Below are positions 5,357 through 61,460 of a stretch of DNA of 64,000 nt, piece after piece. The position numbers and the translations under genes were made by a program. The DNA is from Escherichia phage SUT_E420. Below the pieces are notes generated by a model. That model was not told where the DNA came from and ran no database searches. It saw nothing but the letters and a program-made list of their open reading frames with translations. The stretch lies in sequence record OQ990039. The stretch is one strand, 5' to 3'. Position 1 is the first letter of the stretch, and the number at the start of each line of letters is the position of its first letter.

Positions 5357-5704
5357 TTATTTGATAATAATCTGCATCTGGTACGGCGTTAATTCACCGT
5401 TTACGGGTAGATTATTATCACTTAGCCACTCATAAAAAGCGCTATCGTCATCAAAAGGAACAACATCATTATCACGGTAATCTACGGAAATAACGCCATC
5501 AGTATTAGTTTTAGCGGCTAGGATAGGCCCGAAGCTGTAAACTTTATCAGATTCCATTTCATCCGGTGAAATNNNNNNNNNNNNNNNNNNNNNNNNNNNN
5601 NNNNNNNNNNNNNNNNNNNNNNNNNNNNNNNNNNNNNNNNNNNNNNNNNNNNNNNNNNNNNNNNNNNNNNNNGAAGTGAGCACGGCTAAACATGATATGA
5701 TCAT
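5357..5704 (-). CDS. hypothetical protein (N-terminus obscured by N-gap)
   Basis: ORF runs into N-gap 5572-5672; annotated N-terminus is not trustworthy. Confidence 0.4.
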   Translation of the reverse strand: MIISCLAVLTXXXXXXXXXXXXXXXXXXXXXXXXXXXXXXXXXXISPDEMESDKVYSFGPILAAKTNTDGVISVDYRDNDVVPFDDDSAFYEWLSDNNLPVNGELTPYQMQIIIK

Positions 5705-15136: not shown

Positions 15137-15745
15137 TTACCAATCGTTAACAACGCCGGAGAACTCAGAAGCAAAAACCTTTTCAAATTTCTCTGCAATT
15201 TCAGGATGATCTTTGCAGATCAGCTCAATACATGCTTCTGGAGTCATTCCTTCATCTTCAGGATCACCGTAGTATTTGTCCCAAAGATCATCAGGGATGA
15301 TATGCTCCGCCAAATCTTGGAAAGAGATTAACTGATAACGTTCTGCTTCCTCAGCGATAAGAATTTCGCACAGATCTTTATCTATATCGCTACGATAATC
15401 CGCAATTAATAGGGCATTGCAAGCATGGCATTCCCAGACCATCAAACGTTCAGAGATAGGATTAGACTTATCTTGAACGTAAGACTGGAACAAGGTTCGG
15501 AAAGTTGCCTTAACTTGTTCNNNNNNNNNNNNNNNNNNNNNNNNNNNNNNNNNNNNNNNNNNNNNNNNNNNNNNNNNNNNNNNNNNNNNNNNNNNNNNNN
15601 NNNNNNNNNNNNNNNNNNNNAAACGTTCAGAGATAGGATTAGACTTATCTTGAACGTAAGACTGGAACAAGGTTCGGAAAGTTGCCTTAACTTGTTCAAA
15701 CTTATCTGCTGCTGCGAAAACTAGAGCTTTATCAACTTTGTTCAT
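15137..15745 (-). CDS. hypothetical protein (inflated by N-gap 15521-15620 and duplicated flank)
   Basis: 202-aa ORF contains X run and repeated 25-aa segment; true length about 143 aa. Confidence 0.45.
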   Translation of the reverse strand: MNKVDKALVFAAADKFEQVKATFRTLFQSYVQDKSNPISERXXXXXXXXXXXXXXXXXXXXXXXXXXXXXXXXXXEQVKATFRTLFQSYVQDKSNPISERLMVWECHACNALLIADYRSDIDKDLCEILIAEEAERYQLISFQDLAEHIIPDDLWDKYYGDPEDEGMTPEACIELICKDHPEIAEKFEKVFASEFSGVVNDW

Positions 15746-19673: not shown

Positions 19674-19885
19674 GGCTTTCTCCTATCTTCAAAAANNNNN
19701 NNNNNNNNNNNNNNNNNNNNNNNNNNNNNNNNNNNNNNNNNNNNNNNNNNNNNNNNNNNNNNNNNNNNNNNNNNNNNNNNNNNNNNNNNNNNNNNCTAGA
19801 CTTATTTTCCAGATACCTAGCAGCATCATAGTGAATAGTTCTGCAAACATGGCTTTCTCCTATCTTCAAAAATTATTAAAGCCCC

Positions 19886-19927: not shown

Positions 19928-20341
19928 TTAAACTAGTTCGACATGACCGCCATCATAGGTACCACGTTTTATTTCGTCGTGATAATCTCCCGAAGCATTC
20001 CAATCAGCACCAAAACGAAGTTTAATGCCTAGTTCTTTACCCGCTTGTTCAAAAGCCTTTTTAACTGCCCAAAATGCTTCTAAATCATTCCAATCAATTT
20101 TGCCATTAATGTATGGAGCAAAATCAAGGGCATCCCCAGTAATATGCTTGCTTTTACTAGGATCTTTTAAAAATGAAGTACCATTAGCAATATTCTGGGC
20201 ACTTTGTGCTACTGTACGAATACCCTGTACGATCGTGAAATCATATGGAGATAATTCTAAAGCTCTACGAGCTACTTTTTGTAGCTCTGGCTTAACGGTA
20301 GCTAATTGTTTTTCGCTATTTTTACCAAATTTAAAACTCAT
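19928..20341 (-). CDS. lys: endolysin, L-alanyl-D-glutamate peptidase (M15-like)
   Basis: 137 aa; size and content match T5-type endolysin; immediately downstream of holin gene with overlapping stop/start. Confidence 0.8.
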   Translation of the reverse strand: MSFKFGKNSEKQLATVKPELQKVARRALELSPYDFTIVQGIRTVAQSAQNIANGTSFLKDPSKSKHITGDALDFAPYINGKIDWNDLEAFWAVKKAFEQAGKELGIKLRFGADWNASGDYHDEIKRGTYDGGHVELV

Positions 20342-20994
20342 ATTGATCTACCTAAAGATCTCTGTTGTGGGGAACAGAGCTTTGTTAAATATTCCTTAAA
20401 TTTCTCAGAATCGGCTGCATCTACAGGATTATCTTTCCAAGCAATACCAATATATCCAGCATAGATATTGTTTAGATTGAAATATGGACAAGTGTATATG
20501 TAATTAAAAGTAACGTTCTTAAACGCAGGTATATTTAACCCCGTATATTTATTTACTCTTACACTTAAATCCGATGCGTAGTTAAAGCCCTCTAAGTGAC
20601 GTCTGTATAGCTCAGACGTTTTATTTACTGCTTTATCGGCCAAGTCAGCCCTATCTAATTGCGCATTGCTTTCCCATGCAATAATGTTAGAATAATCATT
20701 AATGGCATCGGGTTTATACTTGACTACAAAAACAGCATCCGCACCCGTTTGAGAAAAGAGTACCATGCTCTTTTCTCTAGCTACATTAGGAAAGTTATCT
20801 ATCCTTTGAGTTTGAACATCCTGTAGAACCGCAGACGTGGAGAAAGTCTTTAAGAATGACATCACCTCGCTAGTATTACTAACAAATAAGAAAATAATGA
20901 TAGCAACTAAGATAGTTAGCAGACGTTTAAGAAGTGATGCTGGATCTTTCGCTTCTTGGAGCAGTACCGTTAATAATTGTAAGAACTTTTCCAA
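20338..20994 (-). CDS. holin
   Basis: 218 aa, N-terminal TM segment, directly upstream of endolysin; apparent TTG start preceded by GAGGAGG. Confidence 0.7.
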   Translation of the reverse strand: MEKFLQLLTVLLQEAKDPASLLKRLLTILVAIIIFLFVSNTSEVMSFLKTFSTSAVLQDVQTQRIDNFPNVAREKSMVLFSQTGADAVFVVKYKPDAINDYSNIIAWESNAQLDRADLADKAVNKTSELYRRHLEGFNYASDLSVRVNKYTGLNIPAFKNVTFNYIYTCPYFNLNNIYAGYIGIAWKDNPVDAADSEKFKEYLTKLCSPQQRSLGRSI

Positions 20995-22515: not shown

Positions 22516-22868
22516 TAATCTTTCCTATTGTTAATTGGTGGATAGTAAACTAAGCAACGTTTTTCTTGTAAATCTTGACGATAGAAGCAGACCATACCAG
22601 TCAGTCGTGAAATGTAAGAGTAAACTGCTTCCTCACATTTTGCTTTTGCATTCCAATCTTTGTATGGTATAACAACTACTACGCCATCTTCTCCATTTGT
22701 AGCTAATTTCTTTTCAAACTTAAAGTCAAAGCTACAAGGTTGAAGTCCTTTAGGCCAGTCTACATGAGCTTGCTTTAACTCATGAGATGGCTCTGGTTTT
22801 ATTTCTTCTGCACAGCCTGTGATTGTGATTGTGGCTGCGAGCAGTACTCCAAGTTTCCAGTTAAACAC
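22515..22868 (-). CDS. lipoprotein, o-spanin-like
   Basis: 117 aa; signal peptide plus lipobox ITGC; start overlaps end of upstream membrane/coiled-coil protein. Confidence 0.5.
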   Translation of the reverse strand: MFNWKLGVLLAATITITGCAEEIKPEPSHELKQAHVDWPKGLQPCSFDFKFEKKLATNGEDGVVVVIPYKDWNAKAKCEEAVYSYISRLTGMVCFYRQDLQEKRCLVYYPPINNRKD

Positions 22869-23248
22869 GCTAATCTTTCCTCGAACTCTTTATTCTGCTT
22901 TTTAGCAATCAATGTTACCAATCCAGGTTTTGCAGCGATAACATCTTGACGACTAAGAGCTTTATCTAGCTGCTTAATCTTTTTGTCTAGATCTGCTTGA
23001 GAAATATTATTCATCGTGAAATACTGATTCATTCTAGTCTCACGAAGTTCACTTTCAGCTTTCACCTTATTAAGGGAAGTCTCTAGAGAAGAGATCTTTT
23101 TAGTAGCTACTGCAAGATCTCCCGCTAAAGTCTCCACTTTATCTACTAAGTGATAAGCACCGAATCCGATGCCTATCGCTAGACCTGCTCCCAGGATATA
23201 CCACTTACCGTGCCATATTCCTGAAAGAAGTTTTTGTATCAAATCCAT
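22799..23248 (-). CDS. membrane-anchored coiled-coil protein, i-spanin-like
   Basis: 149 aa; N-terminal TM then long coiled coil; overlaps downstream lipoprotein gene. Confidence 0.5.
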   Translation of the reverse strand: MDLIQKLLSGIWHGKWYILGAGLAIGIGFGAYHLVDKVETLAGDLAVATKKISSLETSLNKVKAESELRETRMNQYFTMNNISQADLDKKIKQLDKALSRQDVIAAKPGLVTLIAKKQNKEFEERLACLTGNLEYCSQPQSQSQAVQKK

Positions 23249-25090: not shown

Positions 25091-25664
25091 GTTCTTCTCT
25101 CCGACGTTTAGATTCTTTCATCATATGAGCTGCTACAACTTCGTGGTAGTAGTCATTAATGTTATCTTCTGGCAAGAAATGCTTAATAGTCTCTAGCTGA
25201 CAAATAACTCGATGAAGATGGTTATTTGGTAGACACAATTTTATGCCTGCAACAAATCCAGAGAAGCCTGGAACACTGAACATGGGTTGGGCTTCTACTC
25301 TACCTTCAGGGTTGATATTAAGCTCAATTGAGATACCCATTTTCATACTATAAAGCTGGCAATATTCTCCATTACCAGACCTTGACCNNNNNNNNNNNNN
25401 NNNNNNNNNNNNNNNNNNNNNNNNNNNNNNNNNNNNNNNNNNNNNNNNNNNNNNNNNNNNNNNNNNNNNNNNNNNNNNNNNNNNNNNGTTGATATTAAGC
25501 TCAATTGAGATACCCATTTTCATACTATAAAGCTGGCAATATTCTCCATTACCAGACCTTGACCAAACAGTGAAATCCTCATCAATTTGATCTTGGATTT
25601 CTGTAATTGCAAATTTAATTCTAGGGTCTAAATTATTCATCTTCACCTTCAAAGTCGCAATCAT
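25068..25664 (-). CDS. hypothetical protein (inflated by N-gap 25388-25487)
   Basis: 198-aa ORF with X run and duplicated segment; true length about 139 aa. Confidence 0.45.
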   Translation of the reverse strand: MIATLKVKMNNLDPRIKFAITEIQDQIDEDFTVWSRSGNGEYCQLYSMKMGISIELNINXXXXXXXXXXXXXXXXXXXXXXXXXXXXXXXXXXSRSGNGEYCQLYSMKMGISIELNINPEGRVEAQPMFSVPGFSGFVAGIKLCLPNNHLHRVICQLETIKHFLPEDNINDYYHEVVAAHMMKESKRRREEREKTKHQ

Positions 25665-27066: not shown

Positions 27067-27394
27067 ACATTTCTCCTAAAACTTGGGAGATAAANNNNNN
27101 NNNNNNNNNNNNNNNNNNNNNNNNNNNNNNNNNNNNNNNNNNNNNNNNNNNNNNNNNNNNNNNNNNNNNNNNNNNNNNNNNNNNNNNNNNNNNNTGCTGA
27201 CCACCTTCGATTTGAGGGGCGACTTCCACTTTGACTTCACGGAAGGCTTCGGGATCGAATTGTGGTGTGATACCTTCTAGATCTTCAACTAGAACTTTCT
27301 GTTTAAGTTCACCGTTGTCGGAGTATAGCTGAATAATCTGATTTTCATGAACAAGGTTAATTACGCCAGATTTAAGATTTTGATATGCTTTCAT
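26987..27394 (-). CDS. hypothetical protein (interrupted by N-gap 27095-27194)
   Basis: ORF crosses N run; C-terminal part unreliable. Confidence 0.35.
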   Translation of the reverse strand: MKAYQNLKSGVINLVHENQIIQLYSDNGELKQKVLVEDLEGITPQFDPEAFREVKVEVAPQIEGGQXXXXXXXXXXXXXXXXXXXXXXXXXXXXXXXXXXFISQVLGEMCGSSIKTPSPATCEEQPQEVLDSLST

Positions 27395-35430: not shown

Positions 35431-35949
35431 TTAGAAATTTAGCTTCATAGCAAGAAAATTTTTCAAGTTTTCGGTAGACATCTCATCCACATCTACGGGA
35501 GAAACAAAGCCGTTTAATTTTCTAGCAAATTTTTCACCCGCAGGATCGTTGTCTCCGACAGCTACCAATTTAAAAGGTAATAATTTCAGTTGCTTTAATA
35601 ACGCTTTTCCTGGAGAAGAACCTAACATTGCCAGGGCTGGATAACCAGCGTTATGTAGCGCAACTGCCTTAAATACAGATTCAGCGATCAATACTACTTT
35701 TTCATCTCCATTGAGAGTTTCTAGTCCCCATACACACTGGGTAGTAGAATAAGTAAAATATTTAGCTTCAAAGGGACACTTACCATGACCTTTTGGAGCA
35801 GAAGGATTATACGTCTGATAGCCTCGCAACATCCCGGAGAAGTCATACAACGGGACTGTTAGCCATCCTTCCGGACTTAACCAGCAATGATATTTATCTG
35901 TATCAAATCCTCTGGATAAGAGGTGCTGTGTTAGCTCATCAACATTCAT
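35431..35949 (-). CDS. Toprim-domain protein
   Basis: ORF 35431-36000 trimmed to MNVDEL start with GAGAGG ribosome-binding site; VVLIAESVFKAVAL and GDNDPAG resemble the Toprim E and DxD motifs. Confidence 0.55.
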   Translation of the reverse strand: MNVDELTQHLLSRGFDTDKYHCWLSPEGWLTVPLYDFSGMLRGYQTYNPSAPKGHGKCPFEAKYFTYSTTQCVWGLETLNGDEKVVLIAESVFKAVALHNAGYPALAMLGSSPGKALLKQLKLLPFKLVAVGDNDPAGEKFARKLNGFVSPVDVDEMSTENLKNFLAMKLNF

Positions 35950-35979
35950 ATTTGGTTCCTCTCTCAAATTTATAGATAT

Positions 35980-36008
35980 ATTATACAGAGAATTTAGCAT
36001 TCAAGCAA
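35980..36008 (-). promoter_or_regulatory. T5-early-type promoter (-35 TTGCTT, -10 TATAAT)
   Basis: 17-bp spacer, conserved leader. Confidence 0.6.
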
Positions 36009-36124
36009 TCAAATTTTTTAACTTTTTAGAGGAAAATCATAGGGCACTTAAGGGTAGCAGATAAGTGGGGAGGACCAAAATTTGTGACCCCACTAAAAAT
36101 CCGGGGGCAATTTTTAAAGACCCC

Positions 36125-36153
36125 TTGACATTTTCGCTGGGGTAGTGTAAAGT
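36125..36153 (+). promoter_or_regulatory. sigma70-type promoter (-35 TTGACA, 17 bp, -10 TAAAGT)
   Basis: Consensus -35, starts the only plus-strand operon inside the minus-strand block. Confidence 0.55.
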
Positions 36154-36215
36154 ATATGTTATGGATGAGTGATCAAAGAGACACACATTTTCTATATACT
36201 AGGAGGTGTCAAAAT

Positions 36216-37205
36216 ATGACAGAAGAAGTAGCTAAGAGTCCTGAGACCGTCGCTAGCGTTGCAGCAGAACTGCACCGTCACGAGGAATCAGATAAGAAAA
36301 AGTGGGAGAAGGTCAGAGCCTACGAAGAAAAACATCGTGAACACGATGATGAAGAAGAAGATGACGATGATGAACATTGTCATAAATATGGAAAACATAA
36401 AATGCAAGAACCAGTAAACGTATTCACTAGTGGCTTCCCTGGCCTACTGGGTGGTTACCCAGCAAACGCAGGTGCTTTCGGTGGTGAAGGTATGGGACTA
36501 TTCGGAGCTATCCTAATCGGTGCTCTATTAACCGGCGGATTCGGTGGTTTCGGTGGATTCGGTGGACGTGGTGTAGTTGGTGAAGGTACCGCAGTTGATG
36601 CAGTACTTCAGAACCAAGATACCGCTAGTATTCTAGCAGCTATCAACACTACTCGTACAGAGGCTAACCAGGGTACTGGAGCTGTTTTAAGCGCAGTTAA
36701 CAATGGTTTTAGCCAGACAACCCAAAACCAGAGCCGTGATACTCAGTCTGTACTAACTACGATCTACGGTACAGGTGCTAATCTGTCTAATCAGATCTGC
36801 CAGGAAACTCGCAACGTTATTCAGGGTCAGTTCGATCTTTCTCGCCAGATTGATCAATCTTTCGCAGCTAACCAGATAGCTCGTGCACAAGATAAGTTTG
36901 ATTCTGCACAGATCGCTTTCCAGCAGACTTTACAAACTAATAACCAGTTTGCCGCTGTTCAGGCTCAGATGTGTGCTAACCAGAACTCTCTGGAACGTCA
37001 GATCGCTGAATGTTGCTGTGAACTTCAGACTGCGATCGCTGGTGTAACTACTGCGCGTATCCAGGATGAGTTAGACGCATGTCGCCTACGTGAAGCAATC
37101 GCTGCGGGTAGCGGTGCTAACGGTCAGGTAATTAATCAAATCGCTTTAAGTCTTGGTGCTATCACTCAGACTCTGGCTGGTCTGCAGGCTAAACTGCCGG
37201 CTTAA
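36216..37205 (+). CDS. glycine-zipper membrane protein with acidic N-terminus and Q/N/T-rich C-terminal half
   Basis: ORF 36156-37205 trimmed to MTEEVAK start after AGGAGG; DDEEEDDDDEH run, GxxxG-rich hydrophobic GMGLFGAILIGALLTGGFGGFGGFGG, low-complexity tail, C-terminal CCC. Confidence 0.55.
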   Translation: MTEEVAKSPETVASVAAELHRHEESDKKKWEKVRAYEEKHREHDDEEEDDDDEHCHKYGKHKMQEPVNVFTSGFPGLLGGYPANAGAFGGEGMGLFGAILIGALLTGGFGGFGGFGGRGVVGEGTAVDAVLQNQDTASILAAINTTRTEANQGTGAVLSAVNNGFSQTTQNQSRDTQSVLTTIYGTGANLSNQICQETRNVIQGQFDLSRQIDQSFAANQIARAQDKFDSAQIAFQQTLQTNNQFAAVQAQMCANQNSLERQIAECCCELQTAIAGVTTARIQDELDACRLREAIAAGSGANGQVINQIALSLGAITQTLAGLQAKLPA

Positions 37206-37226
37206 TATTAAGGGGAGGAGCCCATT

Positions 37227-37643
37227 ATGAGTAAATATGGTTTTGTAAATAACGGACTTAATCAAAGTATGGGCTCCCAGCAGCCCATTCCGGGTCTGGA
37301 TAACCCCTACTTACAACAGTTGCAACAGCGTTTAGCAGAAGCGCAACAGATGCAGCAACAACTCCAGCAAAACCCTGGAAGTGTGAGTCCTATGCAAATG
37401 ATGCAGCAAATGAGCGGGCAGTCGCAAATGCCTCAACAAATGCAGCAACAGGTGCCTCAGCAGCAAGTTCAGCAACAAACCCAACAACCGCAGGTTTCTG
37501 CGGAAGGACAGGCAGTACTAGCCCTTTTCGAAGACTTCGCAAAGACAGAGGATGGGAAACAGCTTGTATCACTTATGGGTAAGTTTAATAGCTTCTGCCA
37601 AAGCCAAGTTGCAAAAGCTCAAAATGGGGGTAGTAACTCCTAA
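37227..37643 (+). CDS. glutamine-rich low-complexity protein
   Basis: 138 aa, about one third Gln (QQLQQ, QQMQQQ repeats); GGAGG ribosome-binding site. Confidence 0.5.
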   Translation: MSKYGFVNNGLNQSMGSQQPIPGLDNPYLQQLQQRLAEAQQMQQQLQQNPGSVSPMQMMQQMSGQSQMPQQMQQQVPQQQVQQQTQQPQVSAEGQAVLALFEDFAKTEDGKQLVSLMGKFNSFCQSQVAKAQNGGSNS

Positions 37644-37652
37644 GGAGGAAAT

Positions 37653-37847
37653 ATGTGTTGCAGAAAATCTGTTTCGTGCTGCCCAGTGCCTGTAGCACGT
37701 TGTTGCTCTCCAGCAATGTTTACGCAAATACCGGCGTTCAATCCCTTTGCCTTTAAGCCTACTCTTATCCTGCCCCCTAGAGTAGATTTTCAGTCAAGAT
37801 TGGCCTCCCGTATGGGTGGTTGCTGTACACCGAGAGTATGGTTCTAA
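37653..37847 (+). CDS. Cys-rich small protein
   Basis: 64 aa with MCC, SCC, RCC and GGCC Cys pairs; AGGAGG ribosome-binding site. Confidence 0.45.
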   Translation: MCCRKSVSCCPVPVARCCSPAMFTQIPAFNPFAFKPTLILPPRVDFQSRLASRMGGCCTPRVWF

Positions 37848-37859
37848 ACCAAAAACAAA

Positions 37860-37894
37860 AGCCCCTGCCGAAAGGTAAGGGGCTTTTTCTTTTG
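37860..37894 (+). terminator. rho-independent terminator of plus-strand cassette
   Basis: Stem AGCCCCT/AGGGGCT followed by TTTTTCTTTTG; second copy after the N-gap is an artefact. Confidence 0.8.
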
Positions 37895-38071
37895 CCTTAA
37901 ATACAGAAAANNNNNNNNNNNNNNNNNNNNNNNNNNNNNNNNNNNNNNNNNNNNNNNNNNNNNNNNNNNNNNNNNNNNNNNNNNNNNNNNNNNNNNNNNN
38001 NNNNNNNNNNGAGTATGGTTCTAAACCAAAAACAAAAGCCCCTGCCGAAAGGTAAGGGGCTTTTTCTTTTG

Positions 38072-38115
38072 CCTTAAATACAGAAAAGCCCGCGCTCTCG
38101 TAGGAAACGCGGGCT
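38072..38115 (-). terminator. rho-independent terminator after SPFH gene
   Basis: Stem AGCCCGCG/CGCGGGCT, then TTTTCTGTATTT on the minus strand; convergent with the plus-strand terminator. Confidence 0.7.
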
Positions 38116-38139
38116 TGGTTCGAAGATTACGTGTAACTA

Positions 38140-59045: not shown

Positions 59046-61460
59046 GTGTTCTCAATCCTACAAGGTCATGCAGGATTTCATCGCGATTTAGCCACAGGCA
59101 ATTGGCGAGAAGTTAAAGCAGAAGACTATCTTTTTGCTAAAAGATTTTCCTCAAAGCATCCTGAAGGTAAACCAGCTTCAATGCCCTTCAAGTTTGATGT
59201 AATTGATGAAGTTGATCCTCAAACCCTAGTAGAAATGCTTCCTCTTATGAGACGTTTAACGTCTGACCCTCATATCGTTGCGGTACGAGGTCGATGTCTT
59301 ACACCTAAAAATAATGTGCGACGTAAGAAGGGCAACTTTAATGTATCTAACCCAAGTCATATAATTGCAATGGACGTGGATGGTATTGTAGATACAGGTG
59401 GTTGCAACAAGTTTGATCTTGTTGGCATGGCTCGACATATTATTAGAATGTTAAATAGTATTAGTGAGGATATGTTTCCTCTTGATGCAGGGTTTATCGC
59501 TCATGCATCGTCTTCGGCTGGGCTNNNNNNNNNNNNNNNNNNNNNNNNNNNNNNNNNNNNNNNNNNNNNNNNNNNNNNNNNNNNNNNNNNNNNNNNNNNN
59601 NNNNNNNNNNNNNNNNNNNNNNNNATGTTAAATAGTATTAGTGAGGATATGTTTCCTCTTGATGCAGGGTTTATCGCTCATGCATCGTCTTCGGCTGGGC
59701 TAAAACCAGGTATCCGAATGCACTTAATACTAGAATCTAATGTTAAAGTAACTCAGGGTCAAATCAAATTCTTATTTACATCTATCAACGAAAGTAGTAG
59801 ACAAAAGTATGGCTTTGATATTGCCGACTTAGCTTATTACTCTTCCGTACAGCTCCACTATTTTGCAGATCCGTTATTTACCGATGGTATAGTAGATCCG
59901 TTTAAAGCGGAGGGTGCTTCACGTCTGGTATTTGTTAAGGGTTCTAAAGTAAATTTACCCAATAATCTGGTTGACTATGAAACAACTAGAGGTGAGTTTA
60001 AGGAGGAGTTTTACTCTTTACTCGATCAAATTAAAGGTAAAAAAGCTGCCTCTGATAAAGTAGAGGAAACTATCAGCGAACTAGAAGAAGCTGAGGATGG
60101 AGTGTATCTACGTATCATACCTAAACTCTATCACAGAGCCTTAGAGGATGGTGTTGATTTTGCATGGCTAGAAAAAGAAATCCGTCCAGCCTTATCAGAA
60201 TATATTGCAACTAAAGATAACAGTCGCAATATTCAAGATTACTTTAATAACGGTCGTAAACAGGCTCTGAAAGCATTTGTTAATAATTCTAAACGTGATA
60301 TACCTGATGTTTTAAAGGGTATTCCACTTAAAAAGCTAGAAACTAATTCTCTAGAAACTGATAACTTCTTGAAATTAAATACTGTACCACCAGAAGGTTA
60401 TATGACTTTTGTAAAAGCAAGTCTAGGTACAGGTAAAACTACAGCGGTTGTGCGTTGGTTAGATTCAGGAGTTATTAAAGGTAATTTCTTAGCAATTACC
60501 AATACTAGAGCACTGGTATCTTCAAATGCCAAGAAATTTAGTGCAGGACAATATGATAAGTCTGTAGATATGCTTAATTTTAAGCGGGGTGCTATTGACC
60601 GTATGTCCACAACTATTCACTCTTTGCATAAATTCAAGAGTTTTATTGGTCAAATTGATGCAATCTTTATCGATGAATGTGATGCAGTAATGAATGACCT
60701 ATTATTCGCCCCGGTTGTTAAACAACGTCGCGAGTGTATTCAGGTTCTTCGGGATATTCTTGCAACTGCAAAAATCATTATATTATCTGATGGGGATATT
60801 AGTGCAGAAACAATTGAAGCATATGGTTCTTTGATTGAGTTTGATAAACCAGTAGCATTTTATAACCATCACCGTAAAATGCTATCAAAAGCTCATGCTT
60901 ATGAGTTCCCGGATGAATCCAGTATTTGGGTTGCACTTCAGACTTCTCTAGAGATGGGTGAGAAATCTATCCTAGTATCTGACTGTGGGCCGGATGAACT
61001 GAATGAGAAGGGTATGGCATTGCGTCGTAATACGGGTGCGTTAGTTAAGGAAATCCACTCAAANNNNNNNNNNNNNNNNNNNNNNNNNNNNNNNNNNNNN
61101 NNNNNNNNNNNNNNNNNNNNNNNNNNNNNNNNNNNNNNNNNNNNNNNNNNNNNNNNNNNNNNNGATATTAAGAAGTGTTCAAATGTCACTATCAAACCAT
61201 TCATAGAAGCTCTGAAAGGTAAGAAGAAAGATTTCTTCCTTAAAACAGGTCAGAGTGCTAACCCAAAATATGCCAGAATGTATCTTGGTATGATGGGTAT
61301 TGGTAAGGATATGAACACTGAAAATATTGTAGACTGGTACAGAACCTATTGTAAAATCGAGTGTATGCCAATCCCCTATAAGTTTATGACTGATGAGGAG
61401 AAACATATGCATGATGAAGCAATGGCAGAGCTAGGTGCTAGAAATGACAGTGAAGAATAA
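59046..61460 (+). CDS. P-loop NTPase, helicase or replication-initiator-like
   Basis: ORF 58968-61460 trimmed to GTG after ACAGGAG; Walker A SLGTGKTT and Walker B IFIDECDAV; contains two N-gaps so length is inflated. Confidence 0.55.
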   Translation: MFSILQGHAGFHRDLATGNWREVKAEDYLFAKRFSSKHPEGKPASMPFKFDVIDEVDPQTLVEMLPLMRRLTSDPHIVAVRGRCLTPKNNVRRKKGNFNVSNPSHIIAMDVDGIVDTGGCNKFDLVGMARHIIRMLNSISEDMFPLDAGFIAHASSSAGXXXXXXXXXXXXXXXXXXXXXXXXXXXXXXXXXXMLNSISEDMFPLDAGFIAHASSSAGLKPGIRMHLILESNVKVTQGQIKFLFTSINESSRQKYGFDIADLAYYSSVQLHYFADPLFTDGIVDPFKAEGASRLVFVKGSKVNLPNNLVDYETTRGEFKEEFYSLLDQIKGKKAASDKVEETISELEEAEDGVYLRIIPKLYHRALEDGVDFAWLEKEIRPALSEYIATKDNSRNIQDYFNNGRKQALKAFVNNSKRDIPDVLKGIPLKKLETNSLETDNFLKLNTVPPEGYMTFVKASLGTGKTTAVVRWLDSGVIKGNFLAITNTRALVSSNAKKFSAGQYDKSVDMLNFKRGAIDRMSTTIHSLHKFKSFIGQIDAIFIDECDAVMNDLLFAPVVKQRRECIQVLRDILATAKIIILSDGDISAETIEAYGSLIEFDKPVAFYNHHRKMLSKAHAYEFPDESSIWVALQTSLEMGEKSILVSDCGPDELNEKGMALRRNTGALVKEIHSXXXXXXXXXXXXXXXXXXXXXXXXXXXXXXXXXXDIKKCSNVTIKPFIEALKGKKKDFFLKTGQSANPKYARMYLGMMGIGKDMNTENIVDWYRTYCKIECMPIPYKFMTDEEKHMHDEAMAELGARNDSEE

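Follow-up and report, generated by a model that had tools for sequence, protein, structure and literature searches.

The question raised by this locus is what a compact, plus-strand unit of three genes is doing among the minus-strand early genes of a T5-like phage. The unit occupies positions 36125-37894 of a stretch of 64,000 nucleotides (nt) of Escherichia phage SUT_E420 (sequence record OQ990039), which is called here the window and which is, over the unit, 100% identical to Escherichia phage T5_ev212. Its genes, designated g1, g2 and g3, are the counterparts of T5.077-T5.079 in the T5 record NC_005859, with a matching locus, gene order, promoter (P12) and bidirectional terminator, and no structural difference between the two operons is apparent. 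The T5 products share 81-97% identity with their window counterparts, and all three are annotated as hypothetical. The anatomy of the locus is, thus, already on record in the T5 annotation; literature searches for T5.077-079 and for the numbers of the corresponding PHROG families returned no paper, and a conserved, strongly signalled operon of a classical model phage is left without an assigned function.

It is almost certain that T5.077-T5.079 constitute a self-contained module with its own P12 promoter and terminator that is old, often lost, dispensable in the laboratory and able to move between unrelated virulent phages. Our best explanation as a whole, which adds to these operon facts a putative membrane complex with a conditional role in counter-defence or exclusion, is given a probability of about 40%. 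What is added here to the existing annotation is the recognition of a three-gene module across phage families, the evidence for its loss, a protein family with an invariant CCC motif, a structural outline and a corrected annotation of g3. An anonymous “hypothetical protein” locus becomes in this way a defined, genetically testable target and, even if its function proves to be ordinary, a gene that is absent from most T5-like annotations, and was placed in the wrong frame in Pseudomonas phage KPP23, has now been corrected.

An earlier note, made from the letters alone, had described a plus-strand unit amid minus-strand genes, with a TTGACA promoter, three genes with strong ribosome-binding sites (RBSs) and a strong terminator, and this description was borne out by scans, reading frames, folding and the T5 record. 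The neighbours on both sides are indeed on the minus strand, and promoter and terminator flank the genes as in an autonomous transcription unit of moron-like build. The −35 hexamer (TTGACA, 36125-36130) and the −10 hexamer (TAAAGT, 36148-36153) are separated by a 17-nt spacer, and identical hexamers with identical spacing precede the module in a 57-kb contig (L007) whose g1 is only 43% identical to that of the window. The AT-rich block AATTTTTAAAG, upstream of the −35 hexamer, is unchanged in an alignment of five T5-like genomes and the same contig, and may be an UP element, judging from its position and composition only. The RBS block TAGGAGGTGTCAA is likewise invariant in this alignment, and the placement of its AGGAGG suits the ATG at 36216 better than another ATG further upstream, at 36156, as the start of g1. 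A scan of the 5′ untranslated region against Rfam found no match other than terminator-like ones below the threshold.

At the other end of the operon, the terminator folds with −22.8 kcal/mol (z = −4.5; none of 200 shuffled sequences was equally stable). A simple terminator scan missed this hairpin because its stem carries a bulge, but the T5 record labels it an efficient bidirectional rho-independent terminator, and a terminator is also marked there in the BB1 record. The right border of the unit is formed by the convergent terminator of the T5.080 homologue, which corresponds to a second terminator of the BB1 record.

The cassette is not present in all T5-like phages. By tblastn, g1 was found in 222 phage records, and cassette DNA is present in 228, within Tequintavirus and Epseptimavirus and at 70-100% protein identity, while a query consisting of the flanks only matched about 449 records, so that roughly half of the flank-bearing records carry the cassette and, to answer a question raised by the earlier note, it is an insertion/deletion among these genomes. 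In 54 records, such as those of DT57C, SESL and EH4, T5.076 and T5.080 are joined directly; in some Epseptimaviruses at least (e.g., polluks), the cassette is missing and a NadR-type gene adjoins the T5.080 homologue. The empty site of DT57C is especially informative, as it keeps about 30 nt matching the final codons of g3 (L017 1042-1075 versus window 37816-37850). As this 3′ remnant persists between the T5.076 and T5.080 homologues, the cassette must have been deleted in DT57C and not recently gained by its relatives. Similarly, in the re-sequenced laboratory phage BF23 (OR083247.1, 35200-39500), hegA runs straight into T5.081-type genes, and rad, the cassette and T5.080 are missing, whereas the older BF23 record (AJ604530) carries g1; the region was probably deleted in this stock. 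Judged from these sequence comparisons, the cassette is an old resident of T5-like phages that has been repeatedly lost. The proposal of the earlier note that it was horizontally acquired fails, therefore, in the sense of a recent gain, given the g3 remnant of DT57C and the phage-typical codon choice of g1 (see below).

Repeated natural loss fits the results of a CRISPRi-ART screen, in which T5.077, T5.078 and T5.079 were all scored “Not Fit” (PMC11879866, supplementary files 8 and 16). The existence of natural knock-outs (DT57C and laboratory BF23) together with carriers (T5, SP15 and the BASEL phages) makes comparisons possible immediately.

The same three genes occur together in four contexts, namely the T5-like phages, the contig L007, Pseudomonas phage KPP23 (62 kb, AB910392) and a 71-kb contig (L005) that encodes an N4-type virion RNA polymerase. 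In KPP23 (L004 5521-7118), a 320-aa g1 homologue and a 143-aa g2 homologue are accompanied by a 60-aa open reading frame (ORF) of the pattern MCC..CC..CC..CC, and a hairpin with a run of T follows the third gene. The KPP23 record annotates at this place ORF072, which begins with GTG (L004 6938-7132) and is in the wrong frame; the true third gene lies at L004 6936-7118 and has its MCC start two bases upstream. In KPP23, the N4-like contig and L007, g2 homologues lie immediately 3′ of g1 and are followed by counterparts of g3 that start with MCC or MCGCGC (the latter in L007) and contain further CC pairs. The trio is oriented opposite to its neighbours in the T5-like phages, L005 and L007, while the right-hand genes of KPP23 are on the strand of the trio. 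The neighbours of the trio in L007 (an HNH endonuclease, T5orf172 and Hydrolase_2) look T5-like, and this contig may, for that reason, derive from a distant T5 relative and not represent an independent lineage. The presence of the trio in KPP23 and in the N4-like contig supports the mobility that the earlier note suspected, on a deep timescale. As far as the sequences allow us to judge, the cassette moves as a single three-gene module between unrelated virulent phages, its genes travelling jointly among Demerecviridae, an N4-like phage and a Pseudomonas siphovirus. The reading frame and Cys pairs of g3 are kept in all four contexts, which supports selection on this small gene.

Table 1. Features of the cassette, its surroundings and other elements of the window (positions in the window)
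Feature	Position	Strand	Remarks
AT-rich block AATTTTTAAAG	36109..36119	+	5′ of the −35 hexamer, where an UP element would sit
Sigma-70 promoter TTGACA-17-TAAAGT	36125..36153	+	scan score 10/12; promoter P12 in NC_005859
g1 RBS AGGAGG	36201..36206	+	read from the sequence
g1, T5.077 homologue, 329 aa	36216..37205	+	phrog_8119
g2 RBS GGGGAGGAG	37212-37220	+	
g2, T5.078 homologue, 138 aa	37227..37643	+	phrog_7894
g3 RBS AAGGAGGA	37642-37649	+	overlaps the g2 stop codon
g3, T5.079 homologue, 64 aa, four CC pairs	37653..37847	+	
Rho-independent terminator	37857..37893	+	bulged GC-rich hairpin (~37857-37887), GAAA loop, then U-run
Convergent terminator of the T5.080 homologue (SPFH/band-7 type)	38086..38116	-	scan: 12 pairs, 7 GC; second BB1 terminator
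Left neighbour, 189-aa Toprim-type protein, homologue of T5.076 and SP15 ORF75	35431-36000	-	
Holin (T-type)	20338-20994	-	T5-like lysis gene
Endolysin	19928-20341	-	T5-like lysis gene
i-spanin with overlapping o-spanin	22799-23248	-	Kongari 2018 supplement
Assembly artefact	37911..38088	.	100 N (37911-38010), then a copy of 37833-37910 at 38011-38088
Runs of 100 N	784-883, 5573-5672, 15521-15620, 19696-19795, 25388-25487, 27095-27194, 37911-38010, 59525-59624, 61064-61163		

Some observations on the surroundings of the operon are also worth recording. The left side includes, besides the Toprim-type gene, a minus-strand tRNA-Ser gene, and a gene of SPFH/band-7 type lies on the right. The left neighbour is frequently annotated as “DNA primase” because of its Toprim character, although it is a homologue of Rad. 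According to the T5 record, a major single-strand interruption of the DNA (a nick, with a consensus around GCGC) lies just to the right of the bidirectional terminator, and a GCGC is found at the equivalent spot of the window (~38090-38100), within the hairpin of the convergent terminator. The window is a scaffold with nine runs of exactly 100 N, one of which follows the operon; as the 78 nt on the 5′ side of this gap recur on its 3′ side, the operon terminator is artificially duplicated in the window.

The first gene encodes a protein with three distinct parts: an acidic and His-rich N-terminal region, a glycine-rich and marginally hydrophobic segment (approximately residues 73-119) and about 190 residues of long helices. 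It matches phrog_8119 over residues 1-329 (E = 8.4e-205), a family with no function assigned. In profile scans, none of the three products matched a Pfam, NCBIfam or PADLOC family; in Pfam, nothing was found at E ≤ 1 except RIFIN (0.74), and no glycine-zipper profile was matched. Two details of the description of g1 given in the earlier note require correction. The CCC of its tail exists, but the protein does not end in it, as it occupies residues 266-268 of 329. Likewise, a strict GxxxGxxxG motif is present (residues 86-94), but it lies just upstream of the hydrophobic core (94-112), which itself has small-xxx-small spacing. The motif lies within the first 90 residues in 100 of 104 family members.

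An AlphaFold2 model made from 132 sequences (predicted local distance difference test score, pLDDT, of 69) gives a confident N-terminal helix at residues 12-45, long helices at 135-167, 174-276 and 279-325, and disorder in the acidic and glycine-rich stretch 50-133; a model based on 13 sequences (pLDDT 48) was too poor for use. The centre of the third helix (180-250) is predicted with a pLDDT of 85-93, and the CCC would lie near the end of this helix, some ten residues short of the turn that leads into the fourth. When this model was compared by Foldseek with the PDB and with viral models, no hit was better than E = 0.8, and the hits were generic long-helix proteins such as vimentin. A sequence search of the PDB with the family profile gave non-significant matches to keratin and influenza HA2 (E 0.1-0.7 for the latter), and a search with g2 gave none. 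The ratio of nonsynonymous to synonymous substitution rates (dN/dS) of g1, 0.13-0.19, indicates purifying selection.

Beyond the T5-like phages, several hundred phage proteins, all uncharacterised, form with g1 a family in which a single triple cysteine is invariant. When 1.84 billion representative proteins were searched with a profile, 196 representatives related to g1 were found, and a follow-up search gave 362 clusters; the profile used for this wider family already included one short member, and its E-values are not independent evidence. The window g1 matches a short member (P0026) at E = 5e-5, and 12 of 18 short members match phrog_8119. The family comprises PHROGs 9288, 16490 and 8119, none with a function, and we coined for it the name “CCC coiled-coil”. 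Most relatives are 240-290 aa long and do not have the acidic N-terminal extension; these short members begin with a short net-negative tail (0.3 K/R versus 1.9 D/E), continue with a glycine-rich hydrophobic segment of the LLIGALL type followed by an Arg, and then with N/Q/S/T/A-rich helices and CCC(E/D)(I/L)K. The CCC is found in all 120 short members examined, 81 of which have exactly three Cys, and it is the only invariant column among 132 aligned sequences. Cultured carriers of the family are Edwardsiella phage eiAU and Aeromonas phage phiWae15, and other relatives are on phage-sized contigs. No relative turned up in two scans that covered 185,579 bacterial and archaeal species with one genome each, although these scans used short peptide patterns that distant copies could escape. 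The short branch is not accompanied by g2 and g3 but has partners of its own, namely a protein of ~98 aa encoded by the next gene downstream in 19 of the 24 distinct groups, followed by a 58-aa protein, an 87-aa protein and DUF7841 (L010, L014 and the IMG/VR contigs L023-L069).

The product of g2 matches phrog_7894, also without an assigned function, over residues 1-138 (E = 1.1e-79). A conserved N-terminal helix is followed by a Gln/Pro/Met-rich linker and a conserved C-terminal block, LFEDFAKTEDGKQLV..KFNSFCQ, that contains one conserved Cys. The protein is indeed rich in glutamine, although at 27.5% (38 of 138 residues) and not the one third that had been claimed, and its dN/dS (0.08-0.27) points to purifying selection. 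The existence of the third product, a 64-aa peptide with four Cys pairs, was confirmed by the reading frame of g3. It starts with MCCRKSVSCC and has eight Cys in 64 residues (12.5%), arranged as four CC pairs, of which three belong to CC-x-P motifs, and it is rich in Pro and aromatic residues. It matches no PHROG, and most records leave it unannotated, even though its identity across Tequintavirus and Epseptimavirus is 89% or more. The gene is too short for a stable dN/dS, and the estimate is inflated by a block-wise difference at its C-terminal end. This difference (window 37824-37835), TPRV versus NKSI, separates the window from T5 (L003) and Stitch (L019), in a nucleotide pattern like that of two compensating frameshifts. 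The sequences show no signal peptide or membrane segment in g2 or g3 and no export signal in any of the three products; in g3 and its three distant versions, there is neither a hydrophobic signal region nor a lipobox.

How might these proteins work together? In the explanation that we favour, host RNA polymerase would transcribe the operon early in infection, and g1 would be anchored in the inner membrane via its glycine-rich, marginally hydrophobic segment. Its C-terminal part of about 190 residues may fold as a long helical hairpin or coiled coil, and g2 and g3 would dock on g1 at the cytoplasmic face, both being recruited by its Cys-bearing tip. Such a complex could be held together by thiols, through either metal ions or disulfides, and it would act at the membrane, with a benefit under some conditions only. 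Hints in favour of this topology are the lack of a signal peptide or membrane segment in g2 and g3, the net-negative tail of the short family members with an Arg after their hydrophobic segment, and the His/Asp/Glu-rich N-termini of g1. Its function is most probably outside core lysis, replication or the virion. Since the cassette stands beside rad, at or next to a deletable, tRNA-rich “anti-defence island”, the role of the complex would most probably be in counter-defence or exclusion. In phage SP15, ORF75 is Rad, an anti-retron protein, and rad belongs to a tRNA-rich region of about 8 kb, first named an anti-defence island, that stocks of T5 and SP15 delete spontaneously (Azam et al., bioRxiv 10.1101/2023.03.15.532788; PMC11555353). 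Several counter-defence genes are found in this region, and the T5n deletion strain plated worse on AVAST type 2. ORF76 and ORF77 of SP15, directly beside rad, are g1 and g2. Taken separately from the operon, the g1-g2-g3 complex and its role are tentative and, on balance, doubtful. A broader proposal may be regarded as rather unlikely: that the CCC proteins are an unrecognised class of membrane-tethered coiled-coil assemblies, cross-linked by thiols or metals and encoded on small mobile cassettes of virulent phages of Proteobacteria and Bacteroidota, which would provide a new form of envelope-level counter-defence or superinfection exclusion, the T5 type adding a Gln-rich adaptor and a CC-pair peptide.

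Several observations weigh against this explanation. Neither experiment nor homology ties any of the three proteins to a function, and a PADLOC search detected no defence or counter-defence match for g1, g2 or g3. In the papers in which rad and the tRNA genes were mapped, no activity is described for the ORFs of the cassette; the retron work describes rescue for fragments 6-8 only, and the cassette is not assignable to a fragment, such as fragment 9 of the SP15 region, from the text (10.1101/2023.03.15.532788; PMC11555353). Location in an accessory island is, moreover, weak evidence for counter-defence. Regarding g1 itself, its best 19-residue segment scores +1.6 kcal/mol on a crude summed scale, which is marginal and within the range computed for signal-anchor-release (SAR) domains, the HIV fusion peptide and the T5-like i-spanin anchor. 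Its C-terminal domain has very few charged residues (K 1%, E 2-3%) and many N, Q, S, T and A, a composition more typical of extracytoplasmic or virion proteins, and the 90-residue charged N-terminal extension of the T5-type g1 fits an N-in, C-out orientation better. If g1 were inserted in this way, the CCC domain would be out of reach of g2 and g3. As a low-charge helical domain and a large charged N-terminus favour this opposite topology, two alternatives, in which g1 would be a lysis or fusogenic protein or a virion protein, keep a small probability.

According to the first of these alternatives, which we consider distinctly unlikely, the cassette would be a lysis or membrane-disrupting module, with g1 as a spanin-like, antiholin-like or fusogenic protein whose coiled coil spans the periplasm and g3 as an o-spanin-like partner. 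In composition and marginal hydrophobicity, the segment GLFGAILIGALL is similar to the fusion peptides of viruses and to SAR domains, a helix of about 100 residues is predicted in g1, and the family profile weakly matches the fusion peptide and heptad region of influenza HA2, albeit at the non-significant values given above. With no fold match and no C-terminal hydrophobic anchor either, the idea that g1 is a class I viral fusion protein was rejected. Cell-wall hydrolase genes do occur within a few kb of the cassette in T5-like phages, L007, L008 and L014. However, the genome of T5-like phages already provides for lysis at another site (Table 1), with a T-type holin, an endolysin and an overlapped two-component spanin in a cluster about 13 kb from the cassette, and the promoter of the cassette is of the sigma-70 type, in the early region, with no lysis genes adjacent. 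The predicted anchor and long helices of g1 are what would be sought in an i-spanin. Given these separate lysis genes and the absence of a signal peptide or lipobox in g3, the cassette is not the T5-like spanin or holin; the finding of the T5-like spanin pair at another site led to the rejection of the spanin idea. A holin or antiholin was also discarded, as g1 has 329 aa and a single, marginal hydrophobic segment, and lys is not adjacent. The screen mentioned above points in the same direction: knock-down of the holin costs fitness (T5.041 is scored “Fit”), whereas that of the cassette is harmless (PMC11879866). Concerning the spanins of these phages, several genome papers deny them to Tequintaviruses, which conflicts with the Kongari 2018 database.

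Ejection proteins and fibres have a low-charge, helical composition rich in N, Q, S, T and A, and the helices of g1 resemble them in this respect. It could, thus, be argued that the three genes are a virion-associated set, with g1-type proteins packaged in or attached to the particle and entering the host envelope on infection as ejection or pilot proteins do, or as part of a fibre; we regard this as improbable. Among the arguments for it are gene positions in the family: the short-branch gene is co-directional with its neighbours (41 of 46 upstream and 46 of 47 downstream genes), and a family gene follows the tail genes in Edwardsiella phage eiAU and L012. In some crAss-like contigs, moreover, the short-family set stands directly after the gene of the major head protein (phrog_11589, E = 4.5e-143). 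Yet a relative, cr118_1 (L070), has the same head genes without a family member at that position, which makes the set accessory in crAss-like phages too and, together with the small partner genes that the short branch brings along in the manner of a mobile cassette, weakens the idea that the short family belongs structurally to the head module. In the T5-like phages, the operon has a sigma-70 promoter, is early and dispensable, and is missing in about half of the genomes. The KPP23 record, finally, marks another ORF, and not ORF074, as a virion protein.

A slim chance is left to a metal-handling module, in which the His/Asp/Glu-rich N-terminus and CCC of g1, along with the metallothionein-like CC and CxC motifs of g3, would serve to bind or buffer Zn, Cu, Ni or Ca at the membrane during infection. 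All three products have conserved cysteines: T5-type g1 has four, g2 has one and g3 has four to eight, including the MCGCGC start in L007. The N-termini of g1 are His-rich, as in Epseptimavirus (e.g., HHYHHHHHEH). A His-rich protein directly after the family member of eiAU would also agree with metal binding. Nevertheless, the acidic or His-rich extension is missing in most family members, profile scans matched no metal-binding family, and fold searches recognised no transporter or chaperone fold. Compared with metallothionein-like proteins, g3 has only 12.5% Cys, arranged as CC pairs, and no profile match, and the benefit of such a module for a virulent phage is not evident. The eiAU protein, gp09 (L015 5274-5639, 121 aa), lies right after the CCC-family gene and echoes the His-rich N-termini of T5-type g1.

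The earlier note had further described the cassette as GC-richer than its surroundings and had taken its composition as a sign of foreign origin. The first part is correct, as the GC content of the cassette is 0.466 (0.465-0.48 in its genes) versus 0.386 ± 0.029 in 51 other ORFs of the window. The excess is, however, located at codon positions 1 and 2 (GC at position 1 of g1 is 0.63 versus a background of 0.50), while GC at position 3 of g1, 0.35, is close to that of the background (0.32 ± 0.05). Synonymous codon choice is phage-typical in g1 (z = +1.0) and mildly atypical in the short g2 (z = −2.0) and g3 (z = −2.95), so that the second part did not hold. Because of this location of the excess and the codon choice of g1, the GC signal is better attributed to products rich in Gly, Ala, Gln, Asp and Glu than to a foreign origin. 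Consequently, a recently gained foreign island whose products form a glutamine-driven condensate or a toxin is very improbable: its higher GC content, opposite orientation, variable presence and Gln-rich g2 are set against the phage-like third-position GC and synonymous codon choice of g1, the occurrence of the module throughout Tequintavirus and Epseptimavirus at 70-99% identity, a g3 remnant that reveals loss at an empty site, and the fact that Gln is concentrated in the variable linker of g2, whose conserved parts are its two ends.

It is useful, then, to compare the cassette with systems that are better known. With the morons of temperate phages it shares its own promoter and terminator, opposite orientation, variable presence and dispensability. 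By contrast, all carriers of the cassette look virulent, no prophage copy was found in the pattern-based genome scans and the composition is phage-adapted; foreign base composition or codon usage, a mark of morons, was not observed in g1. Given virulent carriers and no prophage copy, the cassette would be expressed in lytic infection and not from a lysogen. The cassette is also similar to rad and other island accessory genes, as it adjoins rad and the region is spontaneously deleted in laboratory stocks, but, unlike rad, it has no reported counter-defence activity, and it lies on the other strand under a promoter of its own.

The spanins Rz/Rz1 of lambda offer a parallel in a predicted membrane-anchored, long-helix protein with conserved Cys and a small Pro/Cys-rich partner, although g3 has no lipoprotein signal, the genes are outside the lysis cassette, a third, Gln-rich gene is present and g1 has a large charged N-terminal domain. 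Additionally, T4 Imm and Sp and T5 Llp are early, membrane-acting exclusion proteins of virulent phages, each a single small protein. The cassette resembles them in its host-type early promoter, its putative membrane association and its dispensability in single infections, and differs from them in having no similarity of sequence or fold and in being a set of three proteins with a predicted long coiled coil.

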